A DNA stretch of 64,000 nt from Spirochaetia bacterium (GCA_963675665.1 OY776510.1:1248001-1312000), one strand, 5' to 3'. Positions 3,124 to 62,573 are shown, numbered from the stretch's first letter. Translations and numbers: made by a program. Notes: generated by a model not told the origin, from the letters alone.

Positions 3124-3981
3124 ATGTTAGGAGATATTATGGGAACTTCAATTGCCTTATTTACCGGAATCATGATTATTGTGCTTGGTTTTCTTGCGGA
3201 GTATATGGATTCGTCTCTTGGAATGGGTTACGGAACCTCGCTTACGCCCATCCTGATGATAATGGGGTTTGAACCCCTGCAGATTGTGCCTGCTATTCTG
3301 TTGTCCGAACTTATTACCGGTATTCTGGCGGGGATTCTGCACAGCAGGGTGGGTAATACAAAATTCAGCATTGAGCTGAACAGGGAGCAGAATGTTGCAA
3401 CTGCCGTTAAAACCGGCAGGATAATCAGCCTGATAAGAAATTCTGTTTCAAGAGATCTGAAAGTAGTTTGTGTAATCTCGGTCTTCAGTATAATAGGAGC
3501 TCTTGCCTCGGTTTCTCTTGCCCTTTCCATTTCAAAATTCGCGCTTAAGACATATATAGGTATCCTTGTTGTTGTTATAGGCGTAGTTTTAATACTAACC
3601 GCCAGAAAAAACTTCAGTTTTTCCTGGAAACGAATAATCATGCTCAGTGTTATAGCTTCATTCAACAAGGGTATGAGCGGAGGGGGGTATGGTCCTGTTG
3701 TGACCGGCGGACAGATGCTGTCAGGTGTAGACAATAAATCGGCAATAGGCATAACGTCTTTGTCCGAGGGGCTGACCTGCGCCGCAGGACTGCTTCTGTA
3801 TTTTCTCTTTCCGGAAAAGCTTGATTTTACGCTTTTTCCATATCTGATTGCAGGGGCCATTCTGTCGGTTCCGCTTTCGGTAATGACTGTTAAAAAGGTT
3901 AACTCTGACAATCTGCGCTATGTGATAGGCGGTTTTACAATATTACTTGGAAGTTTTACCCTGATTAAACTCTTTATTTGA
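3124..3981 (+). CDS. TauE/SafE sulfite-exporter-family membrane protein
   Basis: DSSLGMGYGTSLTP and SGGGYGPVVT repeats, multiple TM segments; true start may be ATG 3139. Confidence 0.85.
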   Translation: MLGDIMGTSIALFTGIMIIVLGFLAEYMDSSLGMGYGTSLTPILMIMGFEPLQIVPAILLSELITGILAGILHSRVGNTKFSIELNREQNVATAVKTGRIISLIRNSVSRDLKVVCVISVFSIIGALASVSLALSISKFALKTYIGILVVVIGVVLILTARKNFSFSWKRIIMLSVIASFNKGMSGGGYGPVVTGGQMLSGVDNKSAIGITSLSEGLTCAAGLLLYFLFPEKLDFTLFPYLIAGAILSVPLSVMTVKKVNSDNLRYVIGGFTILLGSFTLIKLFI

Positions 3982-39575: not shown

Positions 39576-40541
39576 ATGTCAATTCCAAAAGCGAAACTAT
39601 CAGATCTATATAAGAAATTAGTTCTTTGTAGAGAATTCGAGAATGTGACAATAAAGCTTTTTAAGAATAATGAGCTTCCGGGTTTCCTGCATTCCCAGTT
39701 AGGACAGGAAGCAATACCTGTCGGCGTATCGGCCTGTTTGAAAGATGGAGATTTTGTACAGCCGACCCACCGGGGACATGCAGATATGGTTAGCAAAGGT
39801 ATGGATGTAAAAAGAATGATGGCTGAATTATTTGCCAAAAAAACCGGCTATAATCACGGAAAGGGCGGCTCAATGCATATGGCGAGTGTATCGGAAGGCG
39901 TTTTAGGCGCAACAGGTATTGTCGGAAGCGGGCCTGTTATTTCCATAGGCGTAGCATTGGGTTTAATGATGAAGAAAACTGATAATGTGATTATCAGCTT
40001 CTTCGGCGACGGGGCCACGAACGAGGGAAGCGTCCATGAAGCGATCAGTATGGCTGCGGTATGGAAACTTCCCATAGTGTTTGTAATTCAGAACAATCAG
40101 TTTGCCGAATCAACCCCCAGAAAAGATCATCAGAAGGTTGAAGATCTCTCTTCACGTGCTGCAGGTTATGGTATTGAAGGGTATACCTGTGACGGAAATG
40201 ATGTTTTTTCCGTTTACGAAACAGCCGTAAAAGCTGTTGATAAGGCAAGAAAGGGAGAAGGGCCGTCAATTATAAATGCGGAAACTTACAGGATCCTCGG
40301 CCATTATGTGGGTGATCCCGGAACCGGTTACAGGGAAAAAGAAGAGGTAGAGGAAGCAAAGAAGCGGGATCCGGTTAAGAAATTTAAAGAGAATCTTATT
40401 AAGATGAAAGTGTTGACTGAAGCATCGGCAAAAAAGATTGAAGATGAAGTAGATGCACTTATGGAAGAAGCTGTTGCTTTTGGAAAGGAAAGCCCGGAGC
40501 CTCCTGTTGAGGATTTAACAGCCGATGTATACACTCTGTAA
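39576..40541 (+). CDS. TPP-dependent dehydrogenase E1 alpha (AcoA/PdhA-like)
   Basis: GQEA, THRGH, GKGGSMH, GDGATNEG, NNQFA, YRILGH. Confidence 0.94.
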   Translation: MSIPKAKLSDLYKKLVLCREFENVTIKLFKNNELPGFLHSQLGQEAIPVGVSACLKDGDFVQPTHRGHADMVSKGMDVKRMMAELFAKKTGYNHGKGGSMHMASVSEGVLGATGIVGSGPVISIGVALGLMMKKTDNVIISFFGDGATNEGSVHEAISMAAVWKLPIVFVIQNNQFAESTPRKDHQKVEDLSSRAAGYGIEGYTCDGNDVFSVYETAVKAVDKARKGEGPSIINAETYRILGHYVGDPGTGYREKEEVEEAKKRDPVKKFKENLIKMKVLTEASAKKIEDEVDALMEEAVAFGKESPEPPVEDLTADVYTL

Positions 40542-40579
40542 AAACATTTAGGAGGAATGATAAAAAGTCTTCATGAGCT

Positions 40580-40732
40580 GGTGAATTGATATACTGCCTT
40601 AACTTTAATTGAGGCAGTAAGGTTACTGTTCGACATTTTTACTGGTCCGCGAGACCGTTTAGGAGATTGAAGAGCCGTAACCGAAACATTCAATGGTCTG
40701 CGAGACCGGATAGGAGAATGGAACAATTCACC
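40580..40732 (+). ncRNA. Predicted bridge-RNA-like non-coding RNA in the IS110 left end
   Basis: Outer stem GGTGAATTG/CAATTCACC; hairpin TACTGCCTT...GAGGCAGTA; two modules with GGTC(C/T)GCGAGACC hairpins flanked by target- and donor-matching segments. Ends are approximate. Confidence 0.75.
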
Positions 40733-40767
40733 GTATAGGCACTGCTTCAAACTATTGGAGATAGAAC

Positions 40768-41880
40768 ATGAAGATGAGTATTGGCGTGGATCTTCACAAA
40801 ACGCAGTTTACAGTATGCCTTTTAAGTGAAGACCGAAAAATTGATCAATTGGGAATGTATCCGACCAGCGGAAATGGTTATGGAGCATTTCTGAAAATGC
40901 TGGATGAATATTGTGAAGAGGAATATGAGTTGAGAGCAGCGGTGGAAACAACCGGGAATGCCCGTTATTTCCGCAATAAACTGTTAAAGGCTGGAGTCGA
41001 AGTGGTTGTAGTGAATACTTTGAAATTCAAGGTAGTGAATGAATCTGTAAAAAAGACAGACAAACATGATGCACGCACCCTGGCGGAGTTTCTTGAGAAA
41101 GACATGCTGCCTGAATCGATATTATGTTCCCAAGAGAGTGAGGATATTCGAAGGGTGCTGAAATCCAGGTCGATACTGGTAAAATCTGTTGTGTCGTTAA
41201 AGAACCAGGTGCATGGCTTATTACTTGGTTATGGAATAGAGACCAAACGCGGACAGCTGCAGAGTAAAAAAGAAAGGCAGCGAATCCTGAACGGTCTCGA
41301 GGACCACGACTTTTACGGAAGCGCTGCCAAAACGGTAATACCGTTACTGGATATGATAGATAATCAGGCATCGCAAGTCAAGCAGCTTGAAAAGGTTTTG
41401 GCTGAGCTTGTGGAGGACGATGAAGATGTTGAGCTTCTGCAGACAATACCAGGCGTGGGTCTAATAACAGCAGCAACAGTAAGAGCCTATACAGACGATA
41501 TCGGCAGATATGATAGTGCGAAGAAATATGCAGCAAACGCCGGGCTTGTGCCATGGGTGCAGAACTCAAATATGACAATACATCATGGACATATAACAAA
41601 GCGTGGGCCTGTAGAACTGAGGACAGCCTTCGTACAGATGGTGATGGGAATGGTTCGTATGCAAAAGAAGACCGGGACGTACCGAATAATGACGAAGTAT
41701 GCAGCGATGAAGAAGCAGAAAGGCTCGGGTAAGAGTGTAATAGCTGCCGCCCGCAAGATGAGCACTTTGGTATATACAATTTTAAAAACCAGAGAGCCGT
41801 TTGATCCGATGAAAATGGCTTTTAGAAAAGAATACAGGGAAATGCAGGCAGCAGCATGGGAAGCTGTAATGGTCGGTTGA
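40768..41880 (+). CDS. IS110-family recombinase/transposase
   Basis: N-terminal DEDD RuvC-like domain (GVDLHK, VETTG, KTDKHDA); C-terminal LQTIPGVG, AGLVP..QNS (putative catalytic Ser), ITKRG. Confidence 0.96.
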   Translation: MKMSIGVDLHKTQFTVCLLSEDRKIDQLGMYPTSGNGYGAFLKMLDEYCEEEYELRAAVETTGNARYFRNKLLKAGVEVVVVNTLKFKVVNESVKKTDKHDARTLAEFLEKDMLPESILCSQESEDIRRVLKSRSILVKSVVSLKNQVHGLLLGYGIETKRGQLQSKKERQRILNGLEDHDFYGSAAKTVIPLLDMIDNQASQVKQLEKVLAELVEDDEDVELLQTIPGVGLITAATVRAYTDDIGRYDSAKKYAANAGLVPWVQNSNMTIHHGHITKRGPVELRTAFVQMVMGMVRMQKKTGTYRIMTKYAAMKKQKGSGKSVIAAARKMSTLVYTILKTREPFDPMKMAFRKEYREMQAAAWEAVMVG

Positions 41881-41942
41881 TATCCGACCAGATCATAAGC
41901 TTATATTTTTAGCTTGTGGTTGACTTTTTATAGGAGAGAAAA

Positions 41943-42920
41943 ATGGCAATAATTACATATAAGGACGCAATTCGGGATGCACAGCAGGAAGAAATGAAAA
42001 AAGATGAGAGCATTTACCTGCTGGGAGAAGATATCGCTCAATTCGGCGGCAGTTATAAGACCACTGCCGGGCTTTATGATGAATTCGGCGCGGAAAGGGT
42101 TAGAAACACTCCGTTATCGGAAATGGGGATTATCGGGTGTGCTCTTGGTTCGGCAATGATAGGGATGCGTCCGGTAGCTGAGATTATGTATATAGATTTT
42201 ACAGCCTGCTGTATGTCGCAGATTGTAAATGAAGTTGCAAAAACAAAATACATGTATGCAGGACAGGTTAATATTCCGATGGTAATCCGAACACAGGGCG
42301 GGGCGGGAAGAGCTTCGGCGGCGCAACATGCCCAGAGCCTGGAAGCCTGGTTCACGCATGTTCCGGGATTATATGTCGTGATGCCGTCTACCCCCTATGA
42401 TGCCAAAGGGCTTCTTAAAACTGCAATTCGTGATGAGAACCCTGTTCTGTTTATAGAGCATAAACTTCTATATAATACCAAGGGAGAAGTTCCGGAAGAA
42501 GAATATACTATTCCGCTGGGGAAAGCAGACATTAAAAGGAAAGGGGATGATGTTACAATTATTACCTGGTCAAGATGTGTTGATTTTTCCCTGAAAGCGG
42601 CAGAAGATTTGGCAAAGGAAGGCGTAAGCGCAGAAGTAATAGATTTAAGAAGTCTGAAGCCTCTGGATGAAGAAACTTTTCTTCAGTCTGTTGAAAAGAC
42701 AGGTCGTGTTGTTATTGTGCATGAAGCCTGTAAAAACAGCGGTTTTGGAGCGGAAATCACCGCCATTATTAATGAAAAGGCATTTGATGCTCTGGATGCA
42801 CCGATTGAAAGAGTTGCCGGTCTGGATGTTCCGATGCCGTTTAATCCTAATCTCGAAAAATTGAATATACCAGATAAGGACAAAATTATTAAAGCTGTAA
42901 ATAAGGTGCTAAACAGGTAG
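41943..42920 (+). CDS. TPP-dependent dehydrogenase E1 beta (AcoB/PdhB-like)
   Basis: GEDI, RVRNTPLSE, AQHAQSLE, DLRSLKPLD. Confidence 0.94.
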   Translation: MAIITYKDAIRDAQQEEMKKDESIYLLGEDIAQFGGSYKTTAGLYDEFGAERVRNTPLSEMGIIGCALGSAMIGMRPVAEIMYIDFTACCMSQIVNEVAKTKYMYAGQVNIPMVIRTQGGAGRASAAQHAQSLEAWFTHVPGLYVVMPSTPYDAKGLLKTAIRDENPVLFIEHKLLYNTKGEVPEEEYTIPLGKADIKRKGDDVTIITWSRCVDFSLKAAEDLAKEGVSAEVIDLRSLKPLDEETFLQSVEKTGRVVIVHEACKNSGFGAEITAIINEKAFDALDAPIERVAGLDVPMPFNPNLEKLNIPDKDKIIKAVNKVLNR

Positions 42921-42955
42921 TGCCATATTAAAAATATTTTTTAAGGAGATGTTTT

Positions 42956-44245
42956 ATGGTTACAAAAAGGAAGGGAATCATATCATTAGTCGTTTTAATG
43001 TCGATTCTTTTATTGATTGCGGCAAATTCTCTGGTTTTTGCCGGTGGTGAACAAGAGGCAGCAGACGACGGAACATTTACTGCCGAAACTAAAATTATCG
43101 GTATTGTTGAACCGAGAAGCGGTGTATATGCTGAAATCGGAGAACTTGGCATCAAGGGCGTCGAGCTTGCTCTGGATGAATATAATGCCCAGGGCGGAGT
43201 TCTCGGAAGCAAACTTGAATATGTTGCTGAAGATACGCAGTCCAAACCCAATATCGGTGCGCAAAAGGCAAGAAAGCTTATAACCGAGAAAGGTGCGGTA
43301 ATGCTTGTCGGAGAGGTTTCAAGTTCATGTGCCGCCGCTATGGGTGCCGTAGCCCAGGAAATGGGTGTAATTTACATGGCTTCAGGGGCCAACTCCAATA
43401 TAATAACCGGATCGGATGCCCAGAGAGTAATGTTCAGAGCTGATCTGAGTAACTGGCAGTCAAACAGAGCTATGGCTAAATATCTGGTTGAAACAGAGGG
43501 TAAAAACTGGTATTTCCTTACTTCTGACTATACCTGGGGTCATACGGCTTATCAGGTTGCTTCCGAAATCCTGAAAGAATCAGGCGGTACTGAAATTGCA
43601 AACGACCTTGTCCCGTTTGGAACAAATGATTACAGTTCATATCTTATAAAAATTCAAAAAGCCAAACCGGATGTGCTATATTGTTCAGTAGGCGGAACAG
43701 ACGGTATTAACTTCTTTAAACAGTTTGCAGGTTTCGGTCTCAGGGGAACAATGCAGGTTTCGGGTGCGATTATTAATGATTCTGATGCATGGACCCTGGG
43801 CCCCGGAGTAATGACGGGAGTTTGGCCGCATGTCTGGGCTTATAATGTTGATACGCCGGAATCAAAAGCTTTTACAGAAAAATTTGAAGCGAAATACGGC
43901 ACACCTCCTGAAAATGAAAGCTGGCAGGACTATATCTCAACTGTAGCATATCTCGAAGCTGTTAAACGTGCCGGAACATGGGACCATGAGCAGGTAATTA
44001 AAGAACTTGAAGGCACAAAATTTAACGCCATGAAGGGAAATGATGTCTATTTCCGCGACTGGGATCATCAGCTTATTCAACAGGTATATATTGTCAAGGC
44101 TCTTGACGAATGGCCCAGTGAATATGACTGGTGTGAAATTGTTGCCGAAGTACCGGCTCCGGGCGAAGATCTTGAGTCTATTGCCTGTACTAAGGATGAG
44201 AATCCTGTTCGCTTGCAGGAAAAAACCAAACTCAGTTTTGAGTAA
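42956..44245 (+). CDS. HAAT (LivK-like) ABC substrate-binding protein
   Basis: Signal peptide FAGGEQE; GGVLG, SDYTWG, FRDWDHQ. Confidence 0.88.
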   Translation: MVTKRKGIISLVVLMSILLLIAANSLVFAGGEQEAADDGTFTAETKIIGIVEPRSGVYAEIGELGIKGVELALDEYNAQGGVLGSKLEYVAEDTQSKPNIGAQKARKLITEKGAVMLVGEVSSSCAAAMGAVAQEMGVIYMASGANSNIITGSDAQRVMFRADLSNWQSNRAMAKYLVETEGKNWYFLTSDYTWGHTAYQVASEILKESGGTEIANDLVPFGTNDYSSYLIKIQKAKPDVLYCSVGGTDGINFFKQFAGFGLRGTMQVSGAIINDSDAWTLGPGVMTGVWPHVWAYNVDTPESKAFTEKFEAKYGTPPENESWQDYISTVAYLEAVKRAGTWDHEQVIKELEGTKFNAMKGNDVYFRDWDHQLIQQVYIVKALDEWPSEYDWCEIVAEVPAPGEDLESIACTKDENPVRLQEKTKLSFE

Positions 44246-44252
44246 AATTTTT

Positions 44253-44281
44253 AGGTGAAGCCTTTTATTGAGGCTTCACCT
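44253..44281 (+). terminator. Stem-loop after the substrate-binding protein gene
   Basis: AGGTGAAGCCTT-TTATT-GAGGCTTCACCT. Confidence 0.6.
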
Positions 44282-44308
44282 TACAGTTGATTATAAAGGC
44301 AGGTTAGA

Positions 44309-45175
44309 ATGATTATTCTTTCACAATTGGTGAATGGTCTTATTTTGGGAACACTTTATATCCTGATGGCTATGGGGCTTTCCCTGATTTTTGGTACTCT
44401 CGGTATAATAAATTTTGCACATGGAGTTCTGTTCACACTGGGAGCTTATCTTGCATTAAAGATTGCTTTAATAACCAACTTCTGGGTCGGGATTATTGTG
44501 GGACCGGTATTGGTTGGTGTGATCGGAATGTTAATCCAGAGATTTTTACTAAGGCCACTACAGGGAAAAGATGAGCTGTATGGTTTACTTTTAACTTTCG
44601 GCTTGGCCTACGTTATAGAGGATTTAATAAAAATTGTCTGGGGAGTTTCAGGACAACCTTTTAATACTCCGAAATCATTACTTGGTTCTGTTGATATGGG
44701 TTTTCTTGTTTATCCAAAGTACAGGTTATTTGTGCTTGCGATAACGGTGGCCTTGTTGGTAATTCTATATTTATTTCTGAATAAAACAAAATACGGACTG
44801 ATTATACGTGCAGGCAGTAGGGATTTGACGATGGTTTCTCTACTCGGCATACCTATAAATTTATTTTTTACAATTGTTTTTGGAATCGGCGCAATGCTGG
44901 CAGGTACCGCCGGTGTGCTGGCCGCTCCGATGTGGGGTGTTACGCCCACAATGGGAACAAATATAATTATTCCGGCGTTTGTTGTAGTTACACTCGGCGG
45001 GATGGGAAGCCTTGTAGGGGCTGCCGTAGGAGGAATGATAATAGGTATCGCAGTAAGTTTAAGTATTCTCTTTCTGCCGATGCTGTCTGATTTGATCATC
45101 TATATAATAATGGCCGTTATCCTGTTAGTACGCCCCAGAGGATTGTTTGGCGAGATTTGGGAGGCATACGAATAA
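44309..45175 (+). CDS. LivH-like ABC permease
   Basis: INFAHG, VVTLGGMGS, RPRGLFG. Confidence 0.92.
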   Translation: MIILSQLVNGLILGTLYILMAMGLSLIFGTLGIINFAHGVLFTLGAYLALKIALITNFWVGIIVGPVLVGVIGMLIQRFLLRPLQGKDELYGLLLTFGLAYVIEDLIKIVWGVSGQPFNTPKSLLGSVDMGFLVYPKYRLFVLAITVALLVILYLFLNKTKYGLIIRAGSRDLTMVSLLGIPINLFFTIVFGIGAMLAGTAGVLAAPMWGVTPTMGTNIIIPAFVVVTLGGMGSLVGAAVGGMIIGIAVSLSILFLPMLSDLIIYIIMAVILLVRPRGLFGEIWEAYE

Positions 45176-46188
45176 TGAACCTTATGAAAAAAATGGAAAG
45201 CAAAGGCAAGACAGGGAAAACAGTATTATATACAGTCGGTATTCTTATAGGTGTTTTTTTACCTTTTATATTGAAGCTTGTCGGGAGCACGACCTTTCTT
45301 GCTACAGAAATGATTATATTCGCAATTTTTGCCATAGGCTTCAATTTGTTGATCGGTTTTACCGGGATTCTTTCTTTCGGGCATGCCGCATGGCTGGGAG
45401 TAGCTTCATATTCCTGTGCCTTGTTTCAGCTTAATTTTACTCAGAATTCAGTTCTTTTGCCGATGCTTTTTGGAATAATATTTACAACCCTGGTCGGGGC
45501 CATAATAGGCAAGCTGATAATTAAAACGCGGGGAATTTATTTTGCTTATGTAACAATTGCCGTAGGGCAATTGATATTTTTTATTGTTTTCAGGTGGACG
45601 GCTTTAACCGGCGGTGAAAACGGACTCGGCGGAATAAAACGGGTTCCATTGTTGAAATTCATAAATATCCAACCGGAATATAATTTTTATATATTCGTAT
45701 TTATCATATTTCTCATTGTTTTAATTTTAATGAAAATTATTGTGAACTCCCCGTTCGGGAAGGTCCTTCAGGCTATTAGAGAAAACAGGACAAGAGCAAT
45801 TTTTGTCGGTTATGATGTAAAGTCTTATGAGCTTGCGGCTTTTATTATATCTGTTTTTTACGCTTCGGTTGCGGGATCCCTGTATGCATTTCTACTGAAT
45901 TATGTTTTTCCGGAATCACTTCATTGGACGGCCTCCGGGGAGGTTGTAATAATGACCCTTATAGGAGGAATGCATTATCTCTTCGGACCGGTAATCGGCG
46001 CCTTTATAGTCACTTTTTTAAAGGACTTTATCAGTTCTTATACTGACAGATGGCAGATTGTATTAGGTGTTATTTTTGTTGTTTTTGTACTGGGCTCGCC
46101 GGAAGGAATCCTGGGATTTTTTGGAAACAAGAAAGCCAGAAATCCATTCAGACTGAAGAAGAAGGTAAAAAAGGAGTCGAAGTCATAA
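45175..46188 (+). CDS. LivM-like ABC permease
   Basis: LSFGHAA, TGGENG, SPFGKVLQAIREN, PEGILG. Confidence 0.92.
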   Translation: MNLMKKMESKGKTGKTVLYTVGILIGVFLPFILKLVGSTTFLATEMIIFAIFAIGFNLLIGFTGILSFGHAAWLGVASYSCALFQLNFTQNSVLLPMLFGIIFTTLVGAIIGKLIIKTRGIYFAYVTIAVGQLIFFIVFRWTALTGGENGLGGIKRVPLLKFINIQPEYNFYIFVFIIFLIVLILMKIIVNSPFGKVLQAIRENRTRAIFVGYDVKSYELAAFIISVFYASVAGSLYAFLLNYVFPESLHWTASGEVVIMTLIGGMHYLFGPVIGAFIVTFLKDFISSYTDRWQIVLGVIFVVFVLGSPEGILGFFGNKKARNPFRLKKKVKKESKS

Positions 46189-46190
46189 TT

Positions 46191-46931
46191 ATGAAAAATA
46201 ATGGAATTCTACAAACAGCCGGTTTAAAGAAACATTTCGGCGCTCTCAAGGCGGTTGACGGAGTGGATTTTATTCTTGAAGAAGGAACCCTTCATTCGGT
46301 AATAGGCCCAAACGGAGCAGGCAAGACAACATTTTTTAATTGTCTCACAGGAAAATATCCGATTACTTATGGAAAAATTCTTTTTCAGGGAGAAGAGATA
46401 CACCATATACCTACACACAAACTGGTCAGATTAGGGTTATGTCGTTCTTTTCAGATTTTAAATATTTTCGGTAATTTAACAGTTCTGGAAAATGTCAGGG
46501 TGGCTATTCAGGCAAGGAACAAAAACAGGTTTAATCCGTTTGCAAAAGTTGACGGTAAAAGTATTGAAGAAGCTGAAGAAATTCTTGAAAAAGTTGGTCT
46601 TTATCAACAAAAAGATTCAATAGCACAGGAAATGTCTCATGGAGATCAAAGACTTCTGGAAATGGGAATAACAATAGCAACACAACCAAAAATATTGCTT
46701 CTTGACGAGCCTGCGGCAGGACTGTCTGAAACAGAGACAAAGAGTCTGGTGAAAATAATACAGGATCTGAGAAAAGATCATTCTATTGTTTTAATTGAAC
46801 ATGATATTGATATGGTTTTGTCGATCTCTGATGTTATTTCTGTAATGAGTTACGGAAAGGTAATTGCAAAAGGAACGCCGGCTGAGATTCAGAATAATGT
46901 AAAGGTTAAAGAAGCCTATTTGGGAGATTAA
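46191..46931 (+). CDS. LivG-like ABC ATP-binding protein
   Basis: GPNGAGKTT, LLDEPAAG, IEHD, VKEAYLG. Confidence 0.93.
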   Translation: MKNNGILQTAGLKKHFGALKAVDGVDFILEEGTLHSVIGPNGAGKTTFFNCLTGKYPITYGKILFQGEEIHHIPTHKLVRLGLCRSFQILNIFGNLTVLENVRVAIQARNKNRFNPFAKVDGKSIEEAEEILEKVGLYQQKDSIAQEMSHGDQRLLEMGITIATQPKILLLDEPAAGLSETETKSLVKIIQDLRKDHSIVLIEHDIDMVLSISDVISVMSYGKVIAKGTPAEIQNNVKVKEAYLGD

Positions 46932-46934
46932 ACG

Positions 46935-47633
46935 ATGATTCTTTCATTAGATAATATAAATTCTTATTATGGTAAAAGCCATATTTTATATGATGTTTCT
47001 CTGGATATAGAAAAGGGAGAGGCTGTCGCTCTGCTCGGCAGGAACGGAGCGGGTAAGACAACAACGCTGAACAGTATTATAGGCCTTGTAATTCCCAAAC
47101 AGGGAAAAGTCCTTTATGACGGGAACAATATTGCCGGATTAAAGCCTGATAAAATTGTTAATAAGGGTATCTCCCTGGTTCCTGATTCCAGGAGGATATT
47201 TCCCAATATAACAGTTAATGAAAATCTTATAATTTCTGAACGAAAAACAAGCGACGGTATATGGGACACCGAAAGAGTCTACGAATTGTTTCCCGAACTG
47301 ATCAAATTAAAGAACAGTAAAGGCCGGAATCTGAGCGGAGGGGAACAGCAGATGCTTGCCATTGGACGGGCACTCGTCGGAAACCACAAGGTTCTTCTCC
47401 TTGACGAACCGTTTGAGGGTCTGGCTCCGATTATTGTTAAAAAGATTGTCAGGTGCCTGGAAGAGATTAAAAAATCAGGAATGACTATGCTCATTGTAGA
47501 GCATAACTTTCATATAACACTTGAAGTCGCTAATCGTTGTTATGTGATGAATAACGGAAAAATCGTTTATACGGGTGAATCCTCTGAACTTTTAGGGGAT
47601 GAAGCCTTACAGAAGAAACTTCTCGCTATCTGA
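46935..47633 (+). CDS. LivF-like ABC ATP-binding protein
   Basis: GRNGAGKTT, LSGGEQQML, DEPFEGLAP. Confidence 0.93.
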   Translation: MILSLDNINSYYGKSHILYDVSLDIEKGEAVALLGRNGAGKTTTLNSIIGLVIPKQGKVLYDGNNIAGLKPDKIVNKGISLVPDSRRIFPNITVNENLIISERKTSDGIWDTERVYELFPELIKLKNSKGRNLSGGEQQMLAIGRALVGNHKVLLLDEPFEGLAPIIVKKIVRCLEEIKKSGMTMLIVEHNFHITLEVANRCYVMNNGKIVYTGESSELLGDEALQKKLLAI

Positions 47634-47673
47634 TCATTAAAGCATATTAATACCGATTTTGAAGGACAAAGAT

Positions 47674-49005
47674 ATGAGTGAAACTATACAAATGCCGAAA
47701 CTCGGCTTAACAATGGAAAGTGGAAAAATTATCAAATGGTACAAGAATGAAGGAGATTCTGTAGTTAAGGGTGATGTTTTATTGGAAGTTGAATCGGATA
47801 AATCCACTGTGGAAATCGAATCTGAATATGAAGGCGTACTGTTAAAGCAATACTTTCCGGAAGGGGATGATGTTGAATGCGGTTTGCTTGTTGCAGCGGT
47901 CGGCAGCCCCGGGGAAACTCCTCCCGGGCAGGGTAAAGTTTCCGAAGAAGAGAAGACGGCAGATTCTGTGGAGAATGCTGATGCTGAAGAGCCGACAGCG
48001 ATGGCTGCCGTCAGTACAAGGACTGACGGCAGGGTAGTTGCTTCCCCCCGTGCCAGACGGTATGCAAAGGAAAACAAAATTGACCTGTTACAAATAAAAT
48101 CAGGAAGCGGAAGTAACAACAGAATCGAAGAACGTGATGTCAAGGCATTTTTTAATGAAAATAAAAAAGCCATATCTCCTTTGGCTGCAAAGATAGCCTC
48201 ACAGAATAATATGGATTATTCAATTATCAGCGGAAGCGGTACTGCCGGAAGGATAATGAAGGAAGATATTTATAAAACTCTTGAAGCAATGAGAAGCAGC
48301 GAGCTGAATATCTCCGGAGCATTAAAACCGGTTGTTGTGCCTGTTACCAAGATGAGAGAAACAATAGCAAAAAGACTGGAGGCTTCAAAGAGAGACATTC
48401 CTCATTTCTATTTAAGAGTTTCAACAATCATGGAAGAGCTTTTAAAAGCAAGGGCAATGTATAACAAAACTCGGTCGGGAGAAAAGATTTCCCTGAATGC
48501 AATTCTTATGAAAATAATCAGCGTTGTTCTTGAAAAGCACCCTTATGTTAATTCTTCATGGCAGGACGACGGTATTTATTTATATCCCAATATTGATATT
48601 GCCCTCGCAGTGGCAACTGAAACAGGTTTAATAACGCCGATTGTAAGAAATTGCCAGAGAAAGGGAATCAGTGACATAAACATCGAATTATCGGACCTGA
48701 TTGAGAGGGCCAGAAAAGGCATATTAAAACCCGACGAATATTCAAATCCCACTTTTACAATCAGTAATCTGGGCATGTACGGCATTGAGGATTTTGCGGC
48801 AATAATAAATCCTCCGGCTTCGGCCATTCTGGCTGTAGGATCCATAGAAGAAAAACCTGTTGGTATTAATGGCGATATTTGTCTGAAGCCGGTAACGGGA
48901 TTAACACTTAGCGGGGACCATCGGGTTATTGACGGCGCTGTCGGAGCGGAATTCATGCAGGAATTAAAGAGAGTCATAGAATTTCCGTTTATGGGGTATT
49001 TTTAG
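47674..49005 (+). CDS. Dihydrolipoamide acyltransferase E2
   Basis: Lipoyl domain ESDKS, two peripheral-subunit-binding repeats, catalytic DHRVIDG; its TAG stop lies within the IS target core. Confidence 0.94.
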   Translation: MSETIQMPKLGLTMESGKIIKWYKNEGDSVVKGDVLLEVESDKSTVEIESEYEGVLLKQYFPEGDDVECGLLVAAVGSPGETPPGQGKVSEEEKTADSVENADAEEPTAMAAVSTRTDGRVVASPRARRYAKENKIDLLQIKSGSGSNNRIEERDVKAFFNENKKAISPLAAKIASQNNMDYSIISGSGTAGRIMKEDIYKTLEAMRSSELNISGALKPVVVPVTKMRETIAKRLEASKRDIPHFYLRVSTIMEELLKARAMYNKTRSGEKISLNAILMKIISVVLEKHPYVNSSWQDDGIYLYPNIDIALAVATETGLITPIVRNCQRKGISDINIELSDLIERARKGILKPDEYSNPTFTISNLGMYGIEDFAAIINPPASAILAVGSIEEKPVGINGDICLKPVTGLTLSGDHRVIDGAVGAEFMQELKRVIEFPFMGYF

Positions 49006-49033
49006 GAGGAATGATAAAAAGTCTTCATGAGCT

Positions 49034-49186
49034 GGTGAATTGATATACTGCCTTAACTTTAATTGAGGCAGTAAGGTTACTGTTCGACATTTTTACTGGT
49101 CCGCGAGACCGTTTAGGAGATTGAAGAGCCGTAACCGAAACATTCAATGGTCTGCGAGACCGGATAGGAGAATGGAACAATTCACC
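49034..49186 (+). ncRNA. Predicted bridge-RNA-like non-coding RNA, copy 2
   Basis: Same as 40580-40732. Confidence 0.75.
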
Positions 49187-49221
49187 GTATAGGCACTGCT
49201 TCAAACTATTGGAGATAGAAC

Positions 49222-50334
49222 ATGAAGATGAGTATTGGCGTGGATCTTCACAAAACGCAGTTTACAGTATGCCTTTTAAGTGAAGACCGAAAAATTGATC
49301 AATTGGGAATGTATCCGACCAGCGGAAATGGTTATGGAGCATTTCTGAAAATGCTGGATGAATATTGTGAAGAGGAATATGAGTTGAGAGCAGCGGTGGA
49401 AACAACCGGGAATGCCCGTTATTTCCGCAATAAACTGTTAAAGGCTGGAGTCGAAGTGGTTGTAGTGAATACTTTGAAATTCAAGGTAGTGAATGAATCT
49501 GTAAAAAAGACAGACAAACATGATGCACGCACCCTGGCGGAGTTTCTTGAGAAAGACATGCTGCCTGAATCGATATTATGTTCCCAAGAGAGTGAGGATA
49601 TTCGAAGGGTGCTGAAATCCAGGTCGATACTGGTAAAATCTGTTGTGTCGTTAAAGAACCAGGTGCATGGCTTATTACTTGGTTATGGAATAGAGACCAA
49701 ACGCGGACAGCTGCAGAGTAAAAAAGAAAGGCAGCGAATCCTGAACGGTCTCGAGGACCACGACTTTTACGGAAGCGCTGCCAAAACGGTAATACCGTTA
49801 CTGGATATGATAGATAATCAGGCATCGCAAGTCAAGCAGCTTGAAAAGGTTTTGGCTGAGCTTGTGGAGGACGATGAAGATGTTGAGCTTCTGCAGACAA
49901 TACCAGGCGTGGGTCTAATAACAGCAGCAACAGTAAGAGCCTATACAGACGATATCGGCAGATATGATAGTGCGAAGAAATATGCAGCAAACGCCGGGCT
50001 TGTGCCATGGGTGCAGAACTCAAATATGACAATACATCATGGACATATAACAAAGCGTGGGCCTGTAGAACTGAGGACAGCCTTCGTACAGATGGTGATG
50101 GGAATGGTTCGTATGCAAAAGAAGACCGGGACGTACCGAATAATGACGAAGTATGCAGCGATGAAGAAGCAGAAAGGCTCGGGTAAGAGTGTAATAGCTG
50201 CCGCCCGCAAGATGAGCACTTTGGTATATACAATTTTAAAAACCAGAGAGCCGTTTGATCCGATGAAAATGGCTTTTAGAAAAGAATACAGGGAAATGCA
50301 GGCAGCAGCATGGGAAGCTGTAATGGTCGGTTGA
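49222..50334 (+). CDS. IS110-family recombinase/transposase, copy 2
   Basis: Translation identical to 40768-41880. Confidence 0.96.
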   Translation: MKMSIGVDLHKTQFTVCLLSEDRKIDQLGMYPTSGNGYGAFLKMLDEYCEEEYELRAAVETTGNARYFRNKLLKAGVEVVVVNTLKFKVVNESVKKTDKHDARTLAEFLEKDMLPESILCSQESEDIRRVLKSRSILVKSVVSLKNQVHGLLLGYGIETKRGQLQSKKERQRILNGLEDHDFYGSAAKTVIPLLDMIDNQASQVKQLEKVLAELVEDDEDVELLQTIPGVGLITAATVRAYTDDIGRYDSAKKYAANAGLVPWVQNSNMTIHHGHITKRGPVELRTAFVQMVMGMVRMQKKTGTYRIMTKYAAMKKQKGSGKSVIAAARKMSTLVYTILKTREPFDPMKMAFRKEYREMQAAAWEAVMVG

Positions 50335-50396
50335 TATCCGACCAGATCATAAGCTTATATTTTTAGCTTGTGGTTGACTTTTTATAGGAGATTTAT

Positions 50397-51782
50397 ATGT
50401 CTAAATATGATGTTGTTGTTCTGGGGGCCGGTCCGGGCGGTTATGTCTCGGCCATACAGGCCGCCCAGAACGGCTTAAATACGGCTATAGTTGAAAAAGC
50501 TGATTTGGGAGGGGTTTGTCTTAACTGGGGTTGCATCCCCACCAAAGCATTGATTTCTTCAGCACACTTAATGGAAAAAATAAAAAAGATGGAGGAATAT
50601 GGAATTAAAACGGATTTGTCCGGTTTCGATTATTCCAGAGTCTATAAAGATTCACGAAATGCCTCGGCAAAATTGGCAGGAGGGGTAGGCTCTTTACTTA
50701 AAAAAAACAAGGTAGATCTCATTAAAGGCGTCGGCGTCATAGATTCTCCGGGTACGGTTCGCATATCGGCAACCGGGCAACTTGTGGAGACGGAAAATAT
50801 CATTATAGCAACAGGCTCGCGACCCAGGGAAATTCCCGGATTTGAGTTTAATGGAAATACAATCATATCGTCAAAAGATTTGTTGAATATGTCCGAACTT
50901 CCTGAAAGCATCATAATATTGGGGGCGGGCGCTATCGGAATTGAGTTTGCGTATATTTTAAATGCATTTGGGGTCAGAGTGCTTTTAATCGAGATGCTTG
51001 AGCGGATACTGCCGTCTGAGGATTTTGAAATATCGAATGAGCTGTTACGGGAATTGAAAAAGCAGGGAATTGAAATTCTCACGGGAACAAAAGCTGTTAA
51101 ACAAAAAAATAACGGCGGTTCTGTAATTCTTGAAATTGAGAAAGACGGAAAAGTTGAAAAGGTAGCTGCCGGGAAACTTCTTGTCGGTGTCGGACGACGG
51201 GCTAATATTGAAAATCTCGGACTTGAAAGAAACGGAATTGAAATTGAACGGGGCGTTATCAGGACCGGAGATTACTATAAAACTAATGTCAAAGGAATCT
51301 ATGCAATCGGCGATGTTGCCGGGTCACCTATGCTGGCTCATGCAGCATCACATGAAGGAGTAATTGTTGCAGATTATCTGGCAGGTAAAAATCCTCATAA
51401 ACGGGTAGATTCCAATTCCGTTCCGAGAGGCGTCTATTGTGAACCGCAGACTGCCGGTGTTGGGCTTACAGAACAGGAAGCAAAAGAAAAGGATATCAAA
51501 GTCAAGATCTCAAAATTTCCTTTTATAGGTTGCGGAAAAGCTGTGGCTACAGGAAAGCCTGAAGGTTTTGTAAAAATACTAAGTGATTCCCAAACGGAAG
51601 AAATTCTTGGTGCTTCAATTATAGGGTCCGAGGCAACAGAACTGATTCAGGAACTTGTTCTTGCGAAGAATTCAGAATTGCTGTCAGAGGATGTTATAAG
51701 CGCCGTTCATGGTCACCCGACATTATCTGAAGCGATAATGGAAGCCGCCAGAGGAATAAAGGGAAAGCCGATTCATATCTAA
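50397..51782 (+). CDS. lpdA: Dihydrolipoamide dehydrogenase E3
   Basis: GAGPGG, GGVCLNWGCIPTK, GAGAIG, HPTLSE. Confidence 0.96.
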   Translation: MSKYDVVVLGAGPGGYVSAIQAAQNGLNTAIVEKADLGGVCLNWGCIPTKALISSAHLMEKIKKMEEYGIKTDLSGFDYSRVYKDSRNASAKLAGGVGSLLKKNKVDLIKGVGVIDSPGTVRISATGQLVETENIIIATGSRPREIPGFEFNGNTIISSKDLLNMSELPESIIILGAGAIGIEFAYILNAFGVRVLLIEMLERILPSEDFEISNELLRELKKQGIEILTGTKAVKQKNNGGSVILEIEKDGKVEKVAAGKLLVGVGRRANIENLGLERNGIEIERGVIRTGDYYKTNVKGIYAIGDVAGSPMLAHAASHEGVIVADYLAGKNPHKRVDSNSVPRGVYCEPQTAGVGLTEQEAKEKDIKVKISKFPFIGCGKAVATGKPEGFVKILSDSQTEEILGASIIGSEATELIQELVLAKNSELLSEDVISAVHGHPTLSEAIMEAARGIKGKPIHI

Positions 51783-61968: not shown

Positions 61969-62421
61969 TTACTTGACTTTGATGCTAATCTTTTTGGGCT
62001 CGGCTTTAGGTGCCTTGGGTATTACAAGTTCAAGCAGGCCGTTCTCAAAAGATGCCTCTATTTTTTCCTTGTTCACCTCTTTGGGCAGAACAAAGGTTCT
62101 TGTAAAGCTTCTTCCGCTTCTTTCATGCATGATGTAGCGCACGGATTCCTTTTCTTTCTTGTTGTCATTTTCAGCTTCCTTAACCTCGGATGCCGAAATT
62201 GTAAGAAGATTATTATCTACCTTGATTTCTACATCATCTTTGCCGTATCCGGGAAGTTCAACACTGAGCCCGAAATGATTTTCTTTTTCTACAACGTCCA
62301 CTGCCGGGTATCTTGCCGACTTAACTGATGCTGAAGTTCCGCCAAGCATCGATTCCATCATTCTGTCCATCTCGTCGAATACGCTTACCCTTCTCGGTCT
62401 GTAGGTTGCTAATGTTGTCAT
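61969..62421 (-). CDS. Hsp20/alpha-crystallin small heat-shock protein
   Basis: PAVDV, ELPG, ER..SFTRTFVLP, ASFENGLL. Confidence 0.94.
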   Translation of the reverse strand: MTTLATYRPRRVSVFDEMDRMMESMLGGTSASVKSARYPAVDVVEKENHFGLSVELPGYGKDDVEIKVDNNLLTISASEVKEAENDNKKEKESVRYIMHERSGRSFTRTFVLPKEVNKEKIEASFENGLLELVIPKAPKAEPKKISIKVK

Positions 62422-62573
62422 ATCATTACTCCTTATAACCTTCCGCCATGGAAGGTGGTTTGTGAGGTGAAGTTTTCAAACAAAGTTTGAAAACTTCCAA
62501 ATAATAAAAAGTCATGGAGGACTTTTTATTATTACTCCTGTATAAAGTTAATTTTCTTTTACGCTTATATATA

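Follow-up and report, generated by a model that had tools for sequence, protein, structure and literature searches.

IS110-family elements in a Spirochaetia genome and a putative bridge RNA set to the Shine-Dalgarno sequence

A stretch of 64,000 nucleotides (nt) from a Spirochaetia bacterium (GCA_963675665.1, OY776510.1:1248001-1312000; hereafter the window) carries two identical insertion sequences (IS) in a 2-oxoacid dehydrogenase cluster, each lying between two of its genes. Both are IS110-family elements, and we consider that they are probably guided by a bridge RNA whose guide is set to the Shine-Dalgarno (SD) sequence, and we give this explanation, which is built on sequence comparison, a probability of about 0.88. 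A previous reading of the window from its sequence alone (the sequence-only reading) had proposed that both insertions hit the SD of a gene and rebuild it, so that the gene behind the element keeps an intact SD. We follow up these claims below; the coordinates of all features are collected in Table 1.

Results

Two identical elements at rebuilt Shine-Dalgarno sequences

The two elements lie within direct repeats of 1391 bp that are 100% identical (40547-41937 and 49001-50391). Each repeat holds a single open reading frame (ORF), the recombinase gene, whose product combines an N-terminal, RuvC-like DEDD domain (PF01548, residues 5-155, E=9e-18) with a Transposase_20 domain (PF02371, residues 222-303, E=1e-17) and scored 216.8 bits, against a cut-off of 140, with the NCBIfam model NF033542, "IS110 family RNA-guided transposase". 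Among PDB entries, its C-terminal half resembles the solved IS621 and ISCro4 transposases (E=5.6e-15 for the former). The largest antisense ORFs inside the element encode 133 and 114 aa and none is full-length. In place of long terminal inverted repeats, the element has just a 10-bp subterminal one, and no target-site duplication flanks it.

When the elements are taken out, the flanks and gene starts read as the sequence-only reading had reconstructed them: site 1 is ...ACATTTAGGAG / element / AGAAAA ATG (E1-beta) and site 2 is ...ATTTTTAGGAG / element / ATTTAT ATG (E3). Both elements have TTTAGGAG on their left, start with GAATGATAAAAAG, end with TTGACTTTTTATAGGAG, and are followed six bases on by the ATG. 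The TAG in the core of site 2 is indeed the stop codon of E2, and the near-match unoccupied site singled out by the same reading is present, with a spacer of 5 nt that is 1 nt shorter than at the two insertions. The pattern TWWAGGAG-N6-ATG occurred twice in the window, both times as the right junction of an element; 0.19 occurrences were expected by chance and none of 100 shuffles reached two.

The empty form of site 1 that had been postulated was recovered from a contig of 5,387 nt (run X4, with another organism label, from another sample and study), which joins position 40548 straight to 41931 and skips 1382 bp; six letters (TAGGAG) fit both sides of the join, and 5 letters differ over about 1,920 nt. 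When metagenomes were scanned with 20 nt from the left flank of site 2, there were 0 matches.

The genome (5.15 Mb, one contig) contains 15 copies of the element with 99.9-100% identity, and the regularities claimed for the two copies of the window extend to all of them. Each copy sits at a site of the form [T/A][A/T][T/A]AGGAG / element / N5-7 ATG, lies on the strand of the downstream ORF, and is followed by an intact ATG-ORF of 93-729 aa, so that no reading frame is broken (15/15 in each case). The AGGAG-ATG spacing after the element is 6 nt in 12 copies, 5 nt in two and 7 nt in one. Insertion inside operons, also proposed, fits the six copies that lie within 20 nt (<=20 nt) of the end of an upstream reading frame on the same strand; in two others this distance is 74 and 85 nt, and in the rest 210-1,935 nt. 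As a separate observation, run X3 yielded one right flank that lies outside these 15 sites and has no nearby ATG (2 contigs, agreement 0.67).

The claim that the downstream gene keeps an intact SD at its original distance is borne out by the right junction, whose last eight bases are TATAGGAG in 15/15 copies. The left flanks are TATAGGAG in nine copies, TTTAGGAG in three, and TAAAGGAG, ATAAGGAG and ATTAGGAG in one each; the left flank is thus variable in 6/15 copies while the right copy of AGGAG is constant. The same was seen in related elements (L072, L054) and in MITEs (short for miniature inverted-repeat transposable elements; described below), where the left pentamer can be TAGAG, TGGAG or AGAAG and the right one stays AGGAG. 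Since the right copy is constant while the left one varies, the right SD is borne by the element and is not a target-site duplication. Target and right end of the element have AGGAG in common, within whose last three bases, GAG, the crossover must fall; insertion thus leaves the host SD on the left and an element-borne SD on the right, at the original distance from the ATG.

A predicted guide RNA with two similar loops

The region of 213 nt located 5' of the recombinase gene folds better than all of 200 shuffled sequences (z=-4.2). We aligned it with the corresponding region of related elements (25 elements, recombinases 52-79% identical to that of the window) and obtained a consensus fold of 33 pairs, 15 of them with compensatory changes. 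A long-range stem, P1 (40580-40588 with 40724-40732), was present in the minimum free energy (MFE) structure of 22 of the 25 homologues, again with compensatory changes. The two loops enclosed by P1 are built alike, each with a conserved CAU, a few bases, a GGUC...GACC hairpin and then NNNAGGAGA; in the hairpin of the second loop, compensatory changes were seen at pair 155:166 in 12 sequences and at pair 156:165 in 11. AGGAGA is fixed in both loops in 24/25 elements of the clade. Rfam had no match at E<=1 for the element, nor any for 13 other loci.

The second loop would read both ends of the element itself (donor loop). Its 3' side spells the right end, and its 5' side is complementary to the left end, with which it changes in step: the combinations of left end and guide were GAATG/CAUUC, GTATG/CAUAC, GCACG/CGUGC and GCATG/CAUGC, and the guide was perfectly complementary in 22 of the 24 elements with a readable left end (counted by eye).

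The first loop would read the target. The segment on its 3' side, which reads NNAGGAG among the homologues, has the sense of the left flank and would thus pair with the bottom strand. In a covariation test on 55 sites with 12 guide variants, 2.01 of the 3 variable positions matched the left flank, against 1.11 after permutation, and 0 of 5000 permutations reached the observed value. By position, the identity between guide and flank was 0.98 at -6, 0.82 at -7 and 0.21 at -8. The guide UACAGGAG of Oceanispirochaeta, for instance, was paired with the flank TACAGGAG in 6/10 copies, and the guide CAAAGGAG went with the flank CAAAGGAG or AAAAGGAG at 9 of the 12 sites having that guide. A related element from a seawater metagenome differs from the window element exactly at positions 40658 and 40659.

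Another part of the region offers two alternative structures. The arm UUGAGGCAG (40592-40619 versus 40733-40750) pairs with the upstream CUGCCUUAA to form a local hairpin in the MFE structure of the window element, and alternatively with CUGCUUCAA, just 5' of the ribosome-binding site (RBS) of the recombinase gene, in the consensus fold (10 pairs with compensatory changes). These predicted pairings are mutually exclusive and might form a switch.

Is the start codon part of the target?

The sequence-only reading had the guide recognize the SD together with the start codon. The first half of this claim stood, the left guide covarying with the left flank; for the second half, the right side showed a bias in spacing and no covariation. 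A guide reading SD and start codon as one composite target, in which the CAU at 40634-40636 would pair with the ATG and the next six bases with the spacer, would account for several observations. The 6-nt spacing was over-represented: 12/15 copies had it, compared with 38 of 136 TWWAGGAG sites that have an ATG and are unoccupied (Fisher test, p=1e-4); among T[AT]TAGGAG sites it was found in 10/12 occupied and 19/56 unoccupied ones (p=0.002). A spacing of 5-6 nt is likewise preferred at the right ends of MITEs (74%; natural AGGAG-ATG pairs, 51%; p=0.001), and the 5/5 IS copies that adjoin a MITE chose its right junction, followed by N5-7 ATG. Finally, the CAU is kept in 24/25 homologues, and the exception, L072, sits at a site without ATG.

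Against this, none of 10 registers (58 sites, 21 guide pairs) showed significant covariation of the six variable bases with the right flanks, and the spacing in relatives ranges from 3 to 9 nt. The CAU is itself predicted to pair with a loop-closing AUG/UUG (pairs 92:128 and 93:127 of the consensus fold), which would account for its conservation. The bias towards RBSs could also be produced by selection against insertion within genes, as long ORFs contain 98 of the 132 unoccupied T[AT]TAGGAG sites that lack an ATG-ORF 4-9 nt downstream. None of the remaining 34 sites, outside long ORFs, was used, although this class is impure, including four left junctions of MITEs (GAATGATAAA...) as well as ATGs at other spacings or before shorter ORFs. 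We regard a composite target as rather unlikely; the spacing bias and the lack of insertions at these 34 sites nonetheless suggest some constraint on the right side.

A family of small repeats with the same ends

A profile built from 13 copies of a small repeat gave 78 nhmmer hits in the genome (E<=0.01). The copies that keep the right end span 77-159 bp (adjusted to the ends of the model); they begin with GAATGATAAAA, end with ...TTTTTATAGGAG, and contain three hairpins (z about -8) and no guide loops. They share with the IS their first 15-19 and roughly their last 15 bases, and full-length copies have an SD-like core on the left side too. Being short, recombinase-free, numerous and bounded by shared ends, these repeats are most probably MITE-type non-autonomous derivatives of the IS. 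The possibility that the other AGGAG/GAATGATAAA sites represent a second type of IS was ruled out, tblastn having found no recombinase gene in the genome beyond the 15; 13 of the 17 matches to this pattern are MITEs and 4 are ordinary gene starts or other sequence. The single MITE of the window showed no terminator-like or promoter-like site. In a contig of 258 nt from run X3, about 36 nt from the start of the element are linked through 6 other letters to about the last 20 nt (window 40552-40587 / 41917); a MITE copy is a more probable source than a deletion derivative.

Among the 62 hits with a right end, 47 are followed within 3-9 nt by an ATG-ORF of at least 60 aa, five directly by an IS, and eight by another copy, two being ambiguous. 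Tandems of 2, 2, 3 and 5 copies were found. For one of the genes with two insertions, in the order SD / MITE / IS / N6 ATG, the orthologue has a plain SD-N5-8-ATG in 4/4 related species (about 75% DNA identity; one locus). MITEs were detected in all five of the other species examined in the genus, with 3-19 matches per species, and in 1/5 other genomes of the family, and in one of these assemblies (G005) a contig starts with the right end of an IS, directly next to a MITE. No recombinase was detected in these 10 genomes at E<=1e-20, several of the assemblies being fragmented so that absence is not established; it was present in 3/41 genomes searched, this one included.

The repeats could alternatively be host 5'-leader cassettes, that is, a regulatory RNA with its own RBS, which the IS merely resembles or targets. 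Their position directly before an ATG-ORF in 47/62 right-ended copies, their three strong hairpins (z about -8) and their presence in 5/5 species of the genus, with the recombinase found in 0/5 at E<=1e-20, would suit such a cassette. Yet the ends of the repeats are those of the IS and are also carried by IS relatives in other phyla, the second SD-like core stands on the left as with the IS, copies are arranged in tandem and nested with the IS, the orthologous gene is free of a copy in 4/4 related species, an IS right end abuts a MITE in the G005 contig, and Rfam has no match. A host cassette is thus very improbable.

Relatives of the element

All relatives at 52-79% recombinase identity have the left end G(A/C/T)A(T/C)GATAAAAAG and the right end TTGACTTTTTATAGGAG; the metagenome-assembled genomes that carry them are labelled Spirochaetia, Syntrophales, Desulfobacterales, Dehalococcoidales, Dysgonamonadaceae, Gracilibacteria and Leptospira. 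An ATG follows AGGAG by 3-9 nt in 40 of their 43 right flanks (the misses being L027, L049 and L072). More distant elements from Lentisphaeria (32-35% identity) end with ...TTTTATCAT/AGGAGA, and 7/8 of their right flanks read (A)GGAG N5-8 ATG; a third group, with 3 copies, had no assignable ends. The habit of occupying predicted RBSs is clade-wide, from 79% down to 32-35% recombinase identity. In one relative (L046, from a metagenome-assembled genome of Spirochaeta sp.), the right end is doubled in tandem, ...GGTGACTTTTTATAGGAG then TTGAGCTCACGGTTGACTTTTTATAGGAG, as a solo right-end repeat before the gene.

Predicted pairing of the target loop with the recombinase gene, and an inferred junction promoter

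A segment inside the recombinase ORF is complementary at 20 of 22 positions to the hairpin of the target loop and the left target guide. The two stretches pair in the MFE structure of a transcript of 846 nt, with a duplex energy of -40 kcal/mol (local loop, -5.3); when the ORF segment was shuffled 500 times, the mean was -10.5 and the best value -21.8. The segment occurs at the same place in 12 related elements, with the codons GGT CTC ... GAC in 12/12, synonymous sites being fixed, and is absent from more distant relatives. The residue opposite the variable bases of the guide is hypervariable (N, D, I, T, V, C). The segment tracks these bases weakly (1.89/3 against 1.30, p=0.007-0.02, 9 distinct pairs), and cognate duplexes are only slightly better than non-cognate ones (-35.0 against -32.8 kcal/mol). 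Through such a pairing, long transcripts might hide the guide, or the guide RNA might act as a repressor of the recombinase. With the predicted pairing of 21 bp, an active guide may fail to form from a long transcript.

A -35-like TTGACT near the right end and a -10-like TAAAAA near the left end would be brought 17 nt apart (spacer counted on the sequence) across the junction of a circularized element. The former is conserved in relatives, as is GATAAAAAG near the left end.

Host genes and features of the window

The dehydrogenase cluster (39576-51782) is unusual in that a five-gene Liv-type branched-chain amino-acid ABC transporter sits inside it. The genome has five E1-beta paralogues. The best matches to E1-beta in 20 relatives are only 52-58% identical, so that no orthologous operon was available for comparing sites 1 and 2. 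No terminator-like site was found in 40300-42100.

Table 1. Positions of the elements, predicted RNA segments, repeats and neighbouring genes, counted from the first letter of the window (genome loci where stated).
Feature	Position	Strand	Basis or remark
IS110-family insertion sequence copy 1, 1382 bp, GAATGATAAAAAG... to ...TTGACTTTTTATAGGAG	40555..41936	+	Repeat comparison; empty site skips exactly 1382 bp
IS copy 2, identical to copy 1	49009..50390	+	Left SD 49004-49008; rebuilt SD 50386-50390, 6 nt 5' of E3 ATG 50397
Recombinase gene, 370 aa, DEDD_Tnp_IS110 + Transposase_20	40768..41880	+	Pfam, NCBIfam and PDB matches
Target-derived SD AGGAG, left junction of copy 1 (end of left target)	40550..40554	+	Junction comparison, empty site
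Element-borne AGGAG replacing the E1-beta SD, 6-nt spacer to ATG 41943	41932..41936	+	Right-junction comparison
Bridge-RNA-like structured RNA (predicted)	40580..40732	+	Fold z=-4.2; consensus fold; P1 in 22/25 homologues
Candidate right target guide UUUUAC, target loop, 5' side; these six bases vary and follow the conserved CAU at 40634-40636	40637..40642	+	Alignment
Left target guide UUUAGGAG, target loop, 3' side, after hairpin 40644-40656	40658..40665	+	Covariation with left flanks
Right donor guide CAUUC, donor loop, 5' side, complementary to element start GAATG	40687..40691	+	Matching types
Left donor guide AUAGGAG, donor loop, 3' side, after hairpin 40695-40707; identical to element right end	40710..40716	+	Invariant in 25/25
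ORF segment complementary (20/22) to target-loop hairpin and left target guide, 40643-40664	41285..41306	+	Complementarity search; in copy 2 at +8454
Left arm of 10-bp perfect subterminal inverted repeat, ATAAAAAGTC; overlaps -10-like TAAAAA 40561-40566	40560..40569	+	Repeat search
TTGACT, -35-like half of inferred circle-junction promoter	41920..41925	+	Conserved in relatives
Right arm of subterminal inverted repeat	41922..41931	+	Repeat search
Unoccupied near-match GTTAGGAG, 5-nt spacer, ATG	3126..3141	+	Pattern search of window
MITE, 106 bp, after TACAGGAG, ends TATAAGGAG, 7 nt before ATG of ORF 61969-62421; three hairpins	62429..62534	-	Profile match, fold z=-8.1
MITE loci elsewhere in genome, examples	2973058-2973366; 1652333-1652891; 894795-894937		Genome profile search
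E1-alpha ORF	39576-40541		Ends 13 nt before end of left-junction AGGAG of copy 1
E1-beta ORF	41943-42920		Directly 3' of IS copy 1
Liv-type ABC transporter	42956-47633		Between E1-beta and E2
E2 ORF	47659-49005		Directly 5' of IS copy 2; stop TAG 49003-49005
E3 ORF	50397-51782		Directly 3' of IS copy 2

Discussion

A bridge-RNA-guided element with its guide set to the SD would behave as follows. The recombinase would act with an RNA of two guide loops, the first specifying an SD target and the second both ends of the element. Insertion is precise, as the empty site 1 shows, and always co-oriented with the gene, the host SD staying on the left and the SD of the element standing before the gene. 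The rebuilt junction is again a target, and stacks of MITEs and IS, head to tail, do occur before single genes. A circular intermediate would join TTGACT of the right end to TAAAAA of the left end and so create a promoter for the guide RNA, as in IS621. The MITEs, which keep only the two ends, would be moved in trans, and the neighbouring gene would be transcribed by read-through across the element, in which no terminator-like site was found.

Several points weigh against this explanation. The candidate right target guide gave no significant match to the right flanks in 10 registers (best 2.33 against 1.93 of 6, p=0.02 uncorrected). Nine of the 15 left flanks (TATAGGAG) mismatch the left target guide at -7 and match the donor guide and the right end instead; four of these nine, together with the single TAAAGGAG flank, are right ends of MITEs and are explained by the nesting of the IS in them, and five have no such nesting behind them. 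No circle junction was present among the assembled contigs examined. The guide order is the reverse of that of IS621, so that the mechanism is borrowed from an RNA of another arrangement. With 99.9-100% identity the copies are recent, so that their harmlessness is untried by time. The guide RNA, the read-through and the unimpaired expression of the downstream gene are all predictions from sequence.

The duplicated AGGAG as an ordinary target-site duplication from staggered cuts, made by an element without an SD of its own, would fit the presence of AGGAG at both junctions of 15/15 copies but can practically be dismissed, because TAT always precedes the right AGGAG whatever the left flank (TTT, TAA, ATA or ATT), relatives and MITEs differ within the pentamer (TAGAG, TGGAG or AGAAG on the left, AGGAG on the right), the donor guide spells AUAGGAG, and the recombinase belongs to the IS110 family, described in one paper as making no flanking target repeats (PMC8141618).

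The targeting of the interval between SD and start codon by IS110 elements is already known; the variant described here is new. IS900 and IS901 of Mycobacterium avium, both of the IS110 family, insert in the interval that separates the SD from the start codon, as stated by Plague 2010 (PMC2942039) with reference to Doran 1997 and Inglis 2003. The target motif given for IS900, CATGNNNNNNTCTCCTT (PMC8141618), has AAGGAGA-N6-CATG as its reverse complement, the same kind of site as here, so that this kind of target was known before. As the motif is given in the orientation of the element itself, the host gene runs antisense to the IS900 transposase. IS900 has a long antisense ORF (hed) that is said to use host signals, whereas in the present element the recombinase is co-oriented with the host gene in 15/15 copies, no full-length antisense ORF exists, and the right end supplies a new SD.

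IS621 (Durrant 2024, PMC11208160; Hiraizumi 2024, PMC11208158) has a recombinase of the same family and a guide RNA that is likewise encoded upstream of the gene. Other similarities were the two loops, the first for the target and the second for the donor; left guides with the sequence of the top strand and right guides that are its complement; a short core common to target and donor; and a -35 in the right end with a -10 in the left end. In contrast to IS621, the right guide is 5' and the left guide 3' in both loops here (40634-40666 and 40687-40717), which is the reverse order; five bases (AGGAG) are shared instead of a 2-nt core; AGGAGA is fixed in both loops, whereas the loops of IS621 are independently programmable; and sequence similarity is confined to the C-terminal half of the recombinase. 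In the IS1111-type seekRNA (Siddiquee 2024, PMC11187229), as here, a segment complementary to the top strand precedes one that matches the bottom strand, and the elements of that type also have subterminal inverted repeats (10 bp here, 40560-40569 / 41922-41931). Their non-coding region is usually downstream of the gene, however, whereas it is upstream here, as in the IS110 type. A 2026 preprint reports that many bridge-RNA structures depart from the IS621 form, and its models may already include the reversed order of guides.

We found one precedent for an IS110-linked MITE, MITEPpu9 of ISPpu9 (Pares-Guillen 2025, PMC12288879). It is also small and non-autonomous, has IS110-family end boxes, occurs apart from or next to the IS and in tandem, and has been proposed to move in trans. 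It carries a small RNA gene, has 8 copies and goes to REP sequences, whereas the family described here, with 78 hits, contains three hairpins and no gene that was recognised, is located at RBSs and supplies an SD. In our searches of the literature on IS110 elements, bridge RNAs and MITEs, we did not find an SD-spelling guide as a base-pairing explanation, co-orientation combined with regeneration of the SD by the element end, a re-targetable junction with tandem or nested stacks, a swarm of MITEs at RBSs, or a pairing between guide loop and ORF.

A broader proposal can be put forward only tentatively, as we hold it to be less probable than its negation. Over a wide clade, the SD would be fixed both in the target guide and in the right end of the element, each insertion regenerating its landing site; the IS and guide-less MITEs present throughout the genus would stack as portable RBSs; and the 22-nt stretch of the ORF would mask the guide in long transcripts (produced, for example, by host read-through) or be repressed by the guide, a self-limiting switch undescribed for bridge recombinases.

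The guide set to the SD would provide a base-pairing explanation for the observation, made in 1997, that translation start signals are the landing sites of some IS110-family elements, and a version of this behaviour in which the element repairs what it interrupts. A natural RNA whose guides are in reversed order though it lies upstream of the gene would be of use to work on bridge recombinases, as may the candidate self-masking pairing between the guide and the recombinase mRNA. The MITEs would represent a natural mini-donor, in line with the finding that short donors work experimentally. For annotation, this would mean that many 5' leaders and RBSs in the genus are the ends of mobile elements.

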